A stretch of DNA of 42,323 nt, taken from NCBI RefSeq assembly GCF_003334315.1, contig NZ_QOWR01000043.1; one strand, written 5' to 3'. The DNA is from Escherichia coli. GTDB lineage: Bacteria > Pseudomonadota > Gammaproteobacteria > Enterobacterales > Enterobacteriaceae. The position numbers were made by a program, and so were the translations under genes. Below, piece by piece: positions 23,770 through 39,866 of this stretch (its first letter is position 1; the number at the start of each line of letters is the position of its first letter). The notes beneath the pieces are model-generated. The model saw only the letters and a list, made by a program, of their open reading frames with translations. It was not told the DNA's origin and made no database searches.

Positions 23770-23920
23770 ATTTTGTGGCCGCCTGCGGTTGATTGCCGGA
23801 TGCGGCGTAAACGCCTTATCCGGCCTACATGATCGTGCAAATTCAATAAATTGCAGCGTTCTGTAGGCTGGATAAGATGCGTCAGCATCGCATCCGGCAA
23901 AGGCAGATCTCAGCGATAGC
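23770..23920. repeat. BIME/REP cluster between convergent aslB and aslA
   Basis: Several palindromic units (gccggatgcggcgtaaacgccttatccggcctaca; gatgcgtcagcatcgcatccggca) with an attcaataaattgca linker. Confidence 0.8.
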
Positions 23921-23926
23921 GCCGGC

Positions 23927-25582
23927 TTAGTCAGATTTAATCTGCGCGCGTGGTGGATATTTTTTCAGGATCTCCATATACGCGTGCATTTCGGTCTGTA
24001 GCGGTACACCCATCGGAATATGGCGCACGCCGATGGAGTCGCTTTCCTGCGGATCGGTGTAGAGGTTAAACACCGACGATCCCGCCGTTTGCATTACTGT
24101 GCCGGTGAATCCACCCTGATATCCGCTCTGGGTATAAGCGTAAGGTTGCTGAATCAGGACGTGATACTTGAACTCATCCATACGCACAGCAGCGAGTTTA
24201 CCGTTGAGGAAGTAGTGCTCGGCCTTACGGTTAGACTGACCATTTGTTCCCAGGAAGAAGGATGTCTGGTCCACACCATCGATAAAGGTGGTTTTCGGCA
24301 CTAAATTCGCCACTTTCGCTCCAGGATGCCCTGCCAGATCCAGCGCGGTAGGGAAGAGATCTGCCAGATCGACAATACCGTCAGATTTACGCGGTTGGAT
24401 CATCCCTTTCCAGTAAACGAAAGTCGGTACGCGAACGCCGCCTTCCCAGGTCGAACCTTTCGCACCACGGAACGGGGTGCGTCCGTGCGGCGGTACTTCG
24501 GCTTCCGGTCCGTTATCGGAGGTAAAGACGATCAGCGTGTTATCAAGCTGACCGTTTTTCTCCAGTGTTTTATACAGATTAGCGAACACATCGTTCATCT
24601 CCACCATGCAGTCGCCATACGAGGTGCGTGCCGGAGAGCTACCCGCATATTTAGCGTTCGGGTAGTTATCGAAGTGACAGCCGCGAGTGCCGTAATAGAG
24701 GAAGAAAGGCTTATCGCTCTTCGCCATCTTGTCGAGGAACTTAACGCCATATTCCATCCAGCGTTGATCCAGATCTTCCATATATTTCGGCGTAATGTCG
24801 GCAATGGCCTGTTGTTCGCCGCCGCGCACTGCATGAACATCATCTTTGCTGAACGGTAATTGCTTGATGTATTCAGAATGGTCCGGACTCAGGGCCACTT
24901 CCGGATTGACGTGAACGTCGCGCCATTCGGTGTACATATCAGACACCGAGTTAAAGCCACGGAAATCATCAAAGCCAACGTTCTGCGGCTGCGACTCTTT
25001 GTTTTCCCCCATATGCCATTTCCCGATAGCCTGGGTGACGTAACCTTGGTCGTGCAGCAATTGCGGCAGGGTGGTTAACCCTTGCAGACCTCCCGGTTGC
25101 CCGTACATTGGCGGCATCAGAATGCCGTGGTGGATGGAGTATTGTCCGGTGAGAATGGTGGCGCGGGTTGGGGAAGAGCTTGGTTGAGAATACGCCGACG
25201 TTAAAATCAGCCCCTGGCTGGCAACTGCATCGATATCTGGTGTAGGGTTACCCACCGCCACGCCGCCACCGTTAAAACCGACGTCCATCCAGCCCACATC
25301 GTCCAGCAGGAAGATAACCACATTGGGCTTCTTACCGGTTTTTTTCTCAAGTTCTGCCAGCTTCTGCTGGGTTTCTTTATCCTGCGCCGGATGCTGCATT
25401 ACTGGCATCATGTTGTCGGCAATAGTGGTCGCCGGTTTAACCAGATACTGGTTTGGGTGATCGTATCCGGCAAAGCCTTTGCGTGCGGTGGCAGTTGACG
25501 GGGTATCTGCTGCGCTGGCCATGAGAGGAAGAGCGGCGGCGACAGCAACAACAAGACGTTTGGGTGAAAACGAAATTTCCAT
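23927..25582 (-). CDS. aslA: Arylsulfatase-like protein AslA, 551 aa, with N-terminal signal peptide
   Basis: ORF 23927..25582 minus; sulfatase signature S-x-P-x-R ([11 protein letters not shown]); hydrophobic signal sequence ending ASAADTP. Confidence 0.93.
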
Positions 25583-26006
25583 GCAAAATGCTCCGGTTTC
25601 ATGTCATCAAAATGATGACGTAATTAAGCATTGATAATTGAGATCCCTCTCCCTGACAGGATGATTACATAAATAATAGTGACAAAAATAAATTATTTAT
25701 TTATCCAGAAAATGAATTGGAAAATCAGGAGAGCGTTTTCAATCCTACCTCTGGCGCAGTTGATATGTAAGGCAGGTTTATTATATCGCGTTGATTATTG
25801 ATGCTGTTTTTAGTTTTAACGGCAATTAATATATGTGTTATTAATTGAATGAATTTTATCATTCATAATAAGTATGTGTAGGATCAAGCTCAGGTTAAAT
25901 ATTCACTCAGGAAGTTATTACTCAGGAAGCAAAGAGGATTACAGAATTATCTCATAACAAGTGTTAAGGGATGTTATTTCCCGATTCTCTGTGGCATAAT
26001 AAACGA

Positions 26007-37483: not shown

Positions 37484-37499
37484 CTGTATATATACCCAG
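37484..37499. promoter_or_regulatory. LexA (SOS) box upstream of uvrD
   Basis: ctgtatatatacccag fits CTGT-N8-ACAG with one mismatch in the right arm, 58 bp upstream of the uvrD ATG. Confidence 0.75.
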
Positions 37500-37557
37500 C
37501 TTTTTGGCGGAGGGCGTTGCGCTTCTCCGCCCAACCTATTTTTACGCGGCGGTGCCA

Positions 37558-39720
37558 ATGGACGTTTCTTACCTGCTCGACAGCCTTAATGACAAACAGC
37601 GCGAAGCGGTGGCCGCGCCACGCAGCAACCTTCTGGTGCTGGCGGGCGCGGGCAGTGGTAAGACGCGCGTACTGGTGCATCGTATCGCCTGGTTGATGAG
37701 CGTGGAAAACTGCTCGCCATACTCGATTATGGCGGTGACGTTTACCAACAAAGCGGCGGCGGAGATGCGTCATCGTATCGGGCAACTGATGGGCACGAGC
37801 CAGGGCGGTATGTGGGTCGGCACCTTCCACGGGCTGGCGCACCGTTTGTTGCGTGCGCACCATATGGACGCCAATCTGCCGCAGGATTTCCAGATCCTCG
37901 ACAGTGAAGACCAGCTACGCCTGCTTAAGCGTCTGATCAAAGCCATGAACCTCGACGAGAAGCAGTGGCCGCCGCGGCAGGCAATGTGGTACATCAACAG
38001 CCAGAAAGATGAAGGCCTGCGTCCGCATCATATTCAAAGCTACGGTAATCCGGTGGAGCAGACCTGGCAGAAGGTGTATCAGGCGTATCAGGAAGCGTGT
38101 GACCGCGCGGGCCTGGTGGACTTCGCCGAGCTGCTGCTGCGCGCTCACGAGTTGTGGCTTAACAAGCCGCATATCCTGCAACACTACCGCGAACGTTTTA
38201 CCAATATCCTGGTGGACGAATTCCAGGATACCAACAACATTCAGTACGCGTGGATCCGCCTGCTGGCGGGCGACACCGGCAAAGTGATGATCGTCGGTGA
38301 TGACGACCAGTCAATCTACGGCTGGCGCGGGGCGCAGGTGGAGAATATTCAGCGTTTCCTTAATGATTTCCCCGGTGCCGAAACTATTCGTCTGGAGCAA
38401 AACTACCGCTCTACCAGCAATATTCTGAGCGCCGCTAACGCCCTGATTGAAAACAATAACGGGCGTCTGGGTAAAAAACTGTGGACCGATGGCGCGGACG
38501 GTGAGCCTATTTCCCTCTATTGCGCTTTTAACGAACTCGATGAAGCGCGTTTTGTGGTTAACCGCATCAAAACCTGGCAGGACAACGGCGGAGCGCTTGC
38601 CGAGTGCGCCATTCTCTACCGCAGCAACGCCCAGTCGCGGGTGCTCGAAGAGGCGTTATTGCAGGCCAGTATGCCGTACCGTATTTACGGCGGGATGCGC
38701 TTCTTCGAACGCCAGGAAATCAAAGATGCGCTCTCGTATCTGCGCCTGATTGCCAACCGCAACGACGACGCGGCCTTTGAGCGTGTGGTGAATACGCCAA
38801 CGCGGGGTATTGGTGACCGGACGCTGGACGTGGTACGTCAGACATCGCGCGATCGCCAGTTAACACTCTGGCAGGCATGTCGTGAGCTGTTGCAGGAAAA
38901 AGCCCTCGCCGGGCGAGCTGCCAGCGCCTTGCAGCGATTTATGGAATTAATCGACGCCTTAGCGCAGGAAACTGCCGATATGCCGCTGCATGTACAGACT
39001 GACCGGGTAATTAAAGACTCCGGCCTGCGTACCATGTATGAGCAGGAGAAGGGCGAAAAAGGTCAGACGCGTATCGAAAACTTAGAGGAACTGGTGACGG
39101 CAACGCGCCAGTTCAGCTACAACGAAGAAGACGAAGATTTAATGCCGCTGCAGGCGTTCCTCTCCCATGCGGCACTGGAAGCAGGTGAAGGGCAGGCGGA
39201 TACCTGGCAGGATGCGGTGCAGTTGATGACGCTACACTCGGCGAAAGGCCTGGAGTTCCCGCAGGTGTTTATCGTTGGTATGGAAGAGGGCATGTTCCCA
39301 AGCCAGATGTCGCTGGATGAAGGCGGGCGTCTGGAAGAAGAACGCCGTCTGGCCTACGTTGGCGTAACCCGCGCGATGCAGAAACTGACGCTGACCTACG
39401 CGGAAACCCGCCGTCTGTATGGTAAAGAGGTTTACCATCGCCCGTCGCGCTTTATCGGCGAGCTGCCGGAAGAGTGTGTGGAAGAGGTGCGCCTGCGCGC
39501 CACGGTAAGCCGCCCGGTCAGCCATCAGCGGATGGGTACGCCGATGGTCGAGAACGACAGCGGCTACAAGCTCGGCCAGCGCGTACGCCACGCTAAGTTT
39601 GGTGAAGGCACCATTGTCAATATGGAAGGCAGCGGTGAGCATAGCCGTTTGCAGGTGGCATTTCAGGGCCAGGGTATTAAATGGCTGGTGGCGGCATACG
39701 CCCGGCTGGAGTCGGTGTAA
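37558..39720 (+). CDS. uvrD: DNA helicase II UvrD (SF1 helicase; nucleotide excision and mismatch repair), 720 aa
   Basis: ORF 37369..39720; recognised start MDVSYLLDSLNDKQREAVAAP at ATG 37558; Walker A GAGSGKT; upstream in-frame extension overlaps yigB and the LexA box. Confidence 0.95.
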   Translation: MDVSYLLDSLNDKQREAVAAPRSNLLVLAGAGSGKTRVLVHRIAWLMSVENCSPYSIMAVTFTNKAAAEMRHRIGQLMGTSQGGMWVGTFHGLAHRLLRAHHMDANLPQDFQILDSEDQLRLLKRLIKAMNLDEKQWPPRQAMWYINSQKDEGLRPHHIQSYGNPVEQTWQKVYQAYQEACDRAGLVDFAELLLRAHELWLNKPHILQHYRERFTNILVDEFQDTNNIQYAWIRLLAGDTGKVMIVGDDDQSIYGWRGAQVENIQRFLNDFPGAETIRLEQNYRSTSNILSAANALIENNNGRLGKKLWTDGADGEPISLYCAFNELDEARFVVNRIKTWQDNGGALAECAILYRSNAQSRVLEEALLQASMPYRIYGGMRFFERQEIKDALSYLRLIANRNDDAAFERVVNTPTRGIGDRTLDVVRQTSRDRQLTLWQACRELLQEKALAGRAASALQRFMELIDALAQETADMPLHVQTDRVIKDSGLRTMYEQEKGEKGQTRIENLEELVTATRQFSYNEEDEDLMPLQAFLSHAALEAGEGQADTWQDAVQLMTLHSAKGLEFPQVFIVGMEEGMFPSQMSLDEGGRLEEERRLAYVGVTRAMQKLTLTYAETRRLYGKEVYHRPSRFIGELPEECVEEVRLRATVSRPVSHQRMGTPMVENDSGYKLGQRVRHAKFGEGTIVNMEGSGEHSRLQVAFQGQGIKWLVAAYARLESV

Positions 39721-39866
39721 CGTTGCCGGATGCGGTGCTGCGCACCTTATTTGGCCTAAAAAATCATTCAGATTCAATAAATTGCAACGTCATGTAGGCC
39801 GGATAGGGCGTTTACGCCGCATCCGGCATCTGCGCCATCTTCAGTATCTGACACAAAACTATCGTT
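39721..39866. repeat. BIME/REP cluster between convergent uvrD and yigE
   Basis: Palindromic units gttgccggatgcggtgctgcgcacc... and tgtaggccggatagggcgtttacgccgcatccggca with the same attcaataaattgca linker seen at 23841..23855. Confidence 0.8.

Follow-up and report, generated by a model that had tools for sequence, protein, structure and literature searches.

REP units and BIME-1-like REP-linker-REP doublets between convergent genes in the rep-corA region of Escherichia coli

The window analyzed here is a stretch of 42,323 nucleotides of the Escherichia coli chromosome (contig NZ_QOWR01000043.1) that extends from rep to corA and carries short palindromic repeats at three intergenic sites, termed site 1 (rep/gpp), site 2 (aslB/aslA) and site 3 (uvrD/yigE). 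Almost certainly, the repeats at all three belong to the enterobacterial family of REPs (palindromic units), with single-copy REP-L-REP doublets of the BIME-1/RIP/RIB kind, in which two units flank a linker (L), at sites 2 and 3 and a lone REP at site 1. The REP/BIME family has been described since the 1980s. The elements of the window are of this already known kind, and neither a new element type nor a new mechanism is added. For the annotation of the window, the three sites are settled as ordinary REP/BIME elements of a K-12-type chromosome.

A pattern scan of the entire window detected five REP-like units at these three sites and no others. All five units are intergenic and, according to the K-12 annotation, the gaps rep(+)/gpp(-), aslB(+)/aslA(-) and uvrD(+)/yigE(-) are all convergent, as the first-pass annotation of this DNA had noted. 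The same annotation had reported a composite REP/BIME repeat at all three sites. A REP-linker-REP architecture was indeed found at aslB/aslA and uvrD/yigE, whereas the rep/gpp gap contains a solo REP without linker or partner. Furthermore, the span 23770-39866 under which the repeat had been filed is not one feature but merely the envelope of sites 2 and 3; site 1 falls outside it.

Anatomy and family membership of the repeats

For typing, the units were written 5'-GTAGG...CATCCGGCA according to the orientation convention of PMC3333891, where a conserved GTAG 5' to the hairpin foot is given as a hallmark of REPs. The consensus sequences of the Y, Z1 and Z2 types used for the comparisons were inferred, in part from Escherichia albertii copies, and not taken from the original tables. 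Site 2 (23794-23899, 106 nt) has the order Y - L - long Z2-like unit. Its left unit (23794-23828) is a Y-type REP which reads 5'-GTAGG...CATCCGGCA on the minus strand and matches the Y consensus at 34/35 positions. It is followed by the L linker of 34 nt (23829-23862, plus strand) with the IHF-like core ATTCAATAAATTG at 23841-23853. The right unit (23863-23899, plus strand), a long REP of 37 nt with GTAG present, a GCCGGAT head and a Z2-like length and layout, is identical to Z2 at 30/37 positions (ungapped), to Z1 at 27/37 and to Y at 32/39.

Site 3 (39724-39828, 105 nt) has the order degenerate unit - L - Y. The left unit (39724-39759, minus strand) shows TTAG instead of GTAG and TT instead of CC in its stem; its type is ambiguous, with a slightly closer relation to the long unit (30/37 to that of site 2 versus 28/36 to Y). 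The L linker, again 34 nt (39760-39793, plus strand), contains the IHF-like core at 39772-39784 in the same orientation as at site 2. The right unit (39794-39828, plus strand) is a Y-type REP with GTAG, identical to the Y consensus at 33/35 positions, and occupies the position of the canonical Z unit. At both sites the units are oppositely oriented and joined at their GTAG/CTAC ends across the linker, and there is no tandem reiteration. The two Y units differ from each other at a single position (34/35).

Site 1 (2270-2304, plus strand) lies in the gap of 46 nt between the rep and gpp stop codons and belongs to the same rare long (Z2-like) subtype as the right unit of site 2, with 33/35 positions identical to 23865-23899. 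The GTAG tetranucleotide is replaced by AAGG at site 1. In total, three of the five units (both of site 2 and the right one of site 3) possess GTAG. The sorting of the units into REP/BIME types that had been proposed along with the first-pass annotation yielded Y and long Z2-like units but left one unit, the left one of site 3, ambiguous. Inversion of site 2 as a whole was considered as the origin of site 3 and rejected: with 87 columns out of 113, the reverse-complement alignment was hardly better than the direct one with 83, and direct orientation was the only one in which the linker could be aligned.

By exact string comparison, each motif cited in the first-pass annotation was found at the positions given there. 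The 24-mer GATGCGTCAGCATCGCATCCGGCA, which constitutes the 3' two-thirds of the long unit, is present without mismatch at 2281-2304 and 23876-23899 and occurs nowhere else with up to two mismatches; 100 shuffles gave no match. For the linker sequence ATTCAATAAATTGCA, two exact plus-strand copies were found, at 23841-23855 and 39772-39786, compared to 0.02 occurrences expected by chance. The near-identical units in inverted orientation could likewise be recovered, the 35-mer GCCGGATGCGGCGTAAACGCCTTATCCGGCCTACA lying at 23795-23829 on the plus strand and its reverse complement, with one mismatch, at 39793-39827. A self-against-self comparison by an all-against-all repeat search led to the same picture, as sites 1 and 2 share 35 nt at 94% identity, and sites 2 and 3 share 61 nt in direct orientation (80%) and 88 nt in inverted orientation (76%). 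A chance origin of the repeats was ruled out by the shuffles.

What the first-pass annotation had missed is the identity of the linker, which by its sequence is the L motif of BIME-1/RIP/RIB elements with an IHF-type core. The core ATTCAATAAATTG agrees with the IHF consensus WATCAANNNNTTR at 8/9 specified positions at both sites, the mismatch being located at position 2. When the linker pattern ATTCAATANATTGCA was scanned against species-representative genomes, the matches listed comprised at least 34 linker-core matches in 33 loci of one E. albertii genome (289 kb around the matches), while unrelated organisms gave isolated single or double matches. Neither an E. coli nor a Salmonella representative is among the matches listed, and the following rule of linker orientation is one of E. 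albertii. With the linker as written, it is preceded by a Y unit and followed by a Z unit in 30/34 listed copies, the latter being a short Z1 in 28 cases, a Z2 in one and a long unit like that of the window in another one; a Y unit on the right side of the linker was seen in 0/34 listed copies. Site 2 keeps this canonical order with a Z2-like partner, while site 3 breaks it, having Y on the Z side; the spacers flanking the core of site 3 match the canonical E. albertii plus-strand layout in length. Typing of the units against the E. albertii copies thus bore out membership in the REP/BIME family. The family is also evident from copy number, since a query of 301 nt covering site 2 detected a median of at least 27-39 places per E. 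coli genome (28 in one search). The long subtype is low-copy; near-identical sequences were found at a median of two places in each genome.

A different small repeat family, such as ERIC/IRU, BoxC, RSA or a transposon-derived MITE with terminal inverted repeats, is extremely improbable. As a whole, a doublet is an imperfect palindrome of roughly 106 nt whose ends are inverted, and is in this respect superficially similar to a MITE. However, the units bear the hallmarks of REPs, namely GTAG, GCCGGATGCG...CGCATCCGGC arms and an internal mismatch, and match the Y and Z units of the canonical E. albertii elements. In addition, an Rfam scan of the window revealed no family at the three sites; its matches were restricted to GlmZ, the trxA thermometer and four tRNAs. 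The current RefSeq record of K-12 contains no repeat features across the stretch corresponding to the window, and the RepRanger supplements do not mention the genes at these sites.

The window is 99.4% identical over 42 kb to positions 3.960-4.003 Mb of K-12 MG1655, and strain CP53 is 100% identical to it at all three sites. A single BLAST alignment to K-12 MG1655 spans positions 76-42119. The ends of the window (1-75 and 42120-42323) lie outside this alignment, pointing to local differences near yifN and yigF. Within the helicase genes, rep (299-2003) and uvrD (37633-39322) share several direct repeats of 38-116 nt with 71-84% identity. Because both genes encode superfamily-1 helicases, these repeats reflect homology and are not mobile repeats.

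Predicted RNA folds, termination signals and putative functions

The RNA of site 1 was predicted to fold with -22.6 kcal/mol (z-score -5.6) into a stem of 6 bp, a 3x3 internal loop typical of REPs and a second stem of 5 bp. Each doublet gave one long hairpin; its two strands reached -67.6 and -60.4 kcal/mol at site 2 and -54.5 and -45.7 kcal/mol at site 3. The z-scores of the folds ranged from -4.2 to -9.1 and no shuffled sequence folded equally well. In conjunction with the literature on the family, such very stable predicted hairpins make a protection of mRNA 3' ends plausible, one of the two roles that the first-pass annotation had considered.

The other role, termination, did not hold for intrinsic terminators. 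In a terminator scan, no REP unit was followed by a T-run and only a weak 5-bp stem (39734-39746) was detected inside the units; without a T-run, the REP units are therefore not intrinsic terminators. The only convincing terminator-like match was a separate G+C hairpin followed by a T-run at 23762-23784 on the minus strand, directly behind the aslB stop codon, which does not belong to the repeat family. This hairpin would end the aslA transcript after the element has been crossed. In K-12 MG1655 and strain 99-3311 it is destroyed by a 9-nt deletion. A further short hairpin, GCCGGAAAGCGAGGCTTATCCGGC with the REP-like tail CTTATCCGGC, was observed in the convergent gap between cyaA and cyaY (33283-33309) and may be a REP remnant or a mere terminator stem.

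These data also bear on the idea that the repeats are bidirectional Rho-independent terminators which evolved in place and resemble each other only as terminators do. The location of all three sites between convergent genes and the strong hairpins on both strands would fit, and where strains lack the BIME at site 3, a simple hairpin without mismatches is found there whose outer arms are those of the BIME. On the other hand, apart from the missing T-runs, an identity over 24-37 nt that includes loop and bulge positions as well as an AT-rich linker exceeds the needs of a functional hairpin, and dozens of copies of these sequences exist per genome, with further ones in E. albertii. We therefore consider an independent origin as terminators very unlikely compared to membership in the REP family.

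For REP elements, IHF binding, mRNA 3'-end protection, transcription attenuation and effects on topology are documented roles. Since the linker carries an IHF-type core, a role at the DNA level (IHF binding) would belong beside those at the RNA level. By analogy with published work on the family, IHF would bind the linker, and gyrase and Pol I may bind the units. As RNA, each convergent transcript would end in or pass through a REP hairpin, which could block 3'-to-5' exonucleases and attenuate read-through in a Rho-dependent manner rather than by intrinsic termination. The elements themselves would be non-autonomous passengers, created and reshuffled by the Y1 transposase TnpA(REP) acting on single-stranded hairpins that bear GTAG; their creation and reshuffling may also involve slippage in the long palindrome or a switch of template inside it. 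IHF binding, protection from exonucleases, Rho-dependent attenuation and mobilization by TnpA(REP) have been reported in the family literature (PMC3333891, PMC2817692, PMC6379681).

Variation of the three sites among E. coli genomes

The sites were compared in 5,426 complete E. coli genomes, a comparison across strains that had been proposed along with the first-pass annotation. Polymorphism was found at sites 2 and 3 but not at site 1, which is fixed (5418/5426 genomes align across it). Site 2 could be aligned across in 3,664/5,426 genomes. By inspection of representatives, five allelic forms were defined at this site. Form (a), Y-L-long unit, is that of the window and of K-12. In form (b), present in up to 309 genomes, the element is inverted in place while its flanks remain collinear. 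In strain 99-3311, for example, 99/107 positions are identical in the reverse complement versus 82/111 in direct orientation. The aslB/aslA ortholog of E. albertii NBRC 107761 is also inverted (98/106 in reverse complement versus 80/110 direct). Form (c), a lone hairpin, is the exact product of a deletion between GATGCG direct repeats of form (a), and form (d), a lone Y unit, is explained by a deletion between GCCGGAT direct repeats of form (b). Forms (c) and (d) account for roughly 15% and 10% of the genomes, respectively, rough values that were taken from evenly spaced ranking rows. Form (e) is a deletion of 1.58 kb from 23864 to 25444 that starts within the GTAG of the right unit and removes most of aslA, leaving a 138-nt arylsulfatase fragment. 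The junction of this deletion was detected in 1,729/5,426 genomes (32%), e.g. O111:H2 and O91.

Site 3 could be aligned across in 3,012/5,426 genomes; about 44% of the genomes do not align. In the non-aligning genomes that were sampled, the gap between uvrD and yigE contains a gene of 903 nt for a 300-aa protein annotated as a member of the SAM hydrolase/SAM-dependent halogenase family, whose N-terminus appears to be signal peptide-like. These strains have a perfect hairpin, GCGGGATGCGGTGCGCCACACCGCATCCGGC, after uvrD with outer arms as in the BIME. By contrast, the window possesses the BIME and no trace of the 903-nt gene. Strain SCU-124 additionally lacks yigE.

The first-pass annotation had regarded the repeats as potential recombination substrates. 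This was substantiated locally by the in-place inversion, the collapses to single hairpins or units and the 1.58-kb deletion. It was not substantiated for an exchange between sites 2 and 3: the junction that a 16-kb inversion between their inverted Y units is predicted to create was present in 0/5,426 genomes. The latter result is relevant for the question whether the mutual similarity of the sites is due to a recent direct exchange among these three loci, by gene conversion or ectopic recombination, and not to family membership. The rarity of the long unit speaks for such an exchange; as a genome contains a median of two near-identical places, the closest relative of site 1 is the right unit of site 2 and vice versa. 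However, the long subtype is present at aslB/aslA in E. albertii as well and is therefore old, and site 1 lacks a linker and is fixed. With 34/35 and 33/35 positions, the similarity of the Y units to the Y consensus across species equals that between the two units, and no genome contained the junction mentioned above. Taken together, a recent exchange is improbable. To judge from these comparisons, what makes the Y units at sites 2 and 3 nearly identical is their conformity to the family consensus, and an exchange between the two sites is not indicated by it.

With regard to the instability of the doublets, site 2 occurs in both orientations, and at site 3 the linker is flipped relative to the unit types. 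It is conceivable, though on balance doubtful, that doublets of the REP-L-REP type act as flip-flop switches which invert recurrently in place, and that gene-scale deletions, e.g. the loss of aslA, originate from breaks at GTAG. Template switching in the long palindrome or cutting of both strands by TnpA(REP) might drive such flips. If true, a flip would alter the REP type and the face of the IHF site that are met by each convergent transcript and by the local DNA.

Presence/absence polymorphism of BIME-1 elements among isolates has already been published, as stated in a passage of PMC1187871 that cites Bachellier 1997. For the in-place inversion allele and the GTAG-anchored deletion of aslA, no description was found in the literature searched; both are modest extensions of the known instability of BIMEs. 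As a by-product, the analysis provides a locus-level picture across the 5,426 genomes, in which the solo REP is fixed and small structural changes are concentrated at the two REP-L-REP doublets, hotspots separated by 16 kb. This pattern agrees with the literature, where much of the polymorphism between genes is ascribed to BIME-1 elements as a major source.

Comparison with known systems

What the units have in common with the REP family is an imperfect palindrome of 35-37 nt, within the 30-40 nt characteristic of REPs, with an internal stem mismatch, an extragenic location and a high copy number. Solo REPs, or palindromic units, were reportedly described by Higgins in 1982 and Gilson in 1984. 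Site 1 resembles them as a 35-nt imperfect palindrome with an internal mismatch, situated in an extragenic 3' untranslated gap and forming a stable RNA hairpin. It differs from them by AAGG in place of GTAG, by its low-copy long subtype and by its fixation across E. coli, which is unlike many REPs.

BIME-1 elements were reportedly described by Gilson in 1991 and Bachellier in 1994 and 1999, and are said to have been named RIP by Oppenheim in 1993 and RIB by Boccard and Prentki in 1993. Sites 2 and 3 share with them the single-copy doublet of opposite REPs joined at their GTAG/CTAC ends and the L linker with an IHF-type core. Further common features are the location at 3' ends of transcription units and the presence/absence polymorphism among strains. 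An IHF consensus in the inter-REP linker, as is characteristic of RIP/RIB elements, is present at both sites with the one mismatch mentioned. In the literature, BIME-1 is defined as a single-copy Y and Z1 pair around a conserved L linker, often with an IHF site (PMC3333891, PMC1187871, PMC2817692), and its size is given as about 140 bp (PMC1187871), a length that implies outer flanks which are conserved. Such flanks were seen in most of the listed E. albertii Y-L-Z1 copies, which have approximately AGTGCGCTTTGTTCAT in common on the side of Y and TTTTGCGTTTGTCATCAGTCTCA on that of Z1; these are probably the counterparts of the motifs that flank full-length BIME-1.

Several points weigh against the assignment of sites 2 and 3 to BIME-1 and against the mechanism proposed for the elements. 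Both conserved flanks are absent from the two elements of the window, which with 106 and 105 nt do not reach the size of BIME-1. Nor is the composition Y plus Z1, since the partner at site 2 is a 37-nt Z2-like unit and at site 3 the Y unit is located on the Z side, with a degenerate partner. In strict nomenclature, sites 2 and 3 would be atypical or BIME-1-like, L-bearing BIMEs. Moreover, site 1 and the left unit of site 3 lack GTAG and are therefore probably no longer substrates of TnpA(REP), and in the literature searched there was no site-specific report of IHF chromatin immunoprecipitation or footprinting for these loci, nor one of mRNA stabilization or attenuation. By their putative function, sites 2 and 3 fall in the RIP/RIB class.

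REPIN/RAYT systems were reportedly described by Bertels and Rainey in 2011, Nunvar in 2010 and Ton-Hoang in 2012. The window elements are similar to REPINs in that an inverted REP doublet constitutes the unit and that GTAG and the stem mismatch are the features needed by TnpA(REP). Moreover, one deletion breakpoint lies within the GTAG/CTAC tetranucleotide, the site cut by TnpA(REP) in vitro. They differ in that the window is devoid of tnpA(REP), whose locus is yafL-fhiA (PMC3333891) and thus outside the window. All variation seen here occurred in place, and none of it amounted to a demonstrated transposition.

Flip-flop inversion of hairpin loops between short inverted repeats is known from chloroplast intergenic spacers, and template switching at quasi-palindromes is known from E. 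coli. In contrast to these systems, the inverted segment at aslB/aslA is the whole REP-L-REP element of about 85 nt. The likeness lies in the occurrence of this element in both orientations, the outcome to be expected if its inverted arms underwent intramolecular exchange or template switching.

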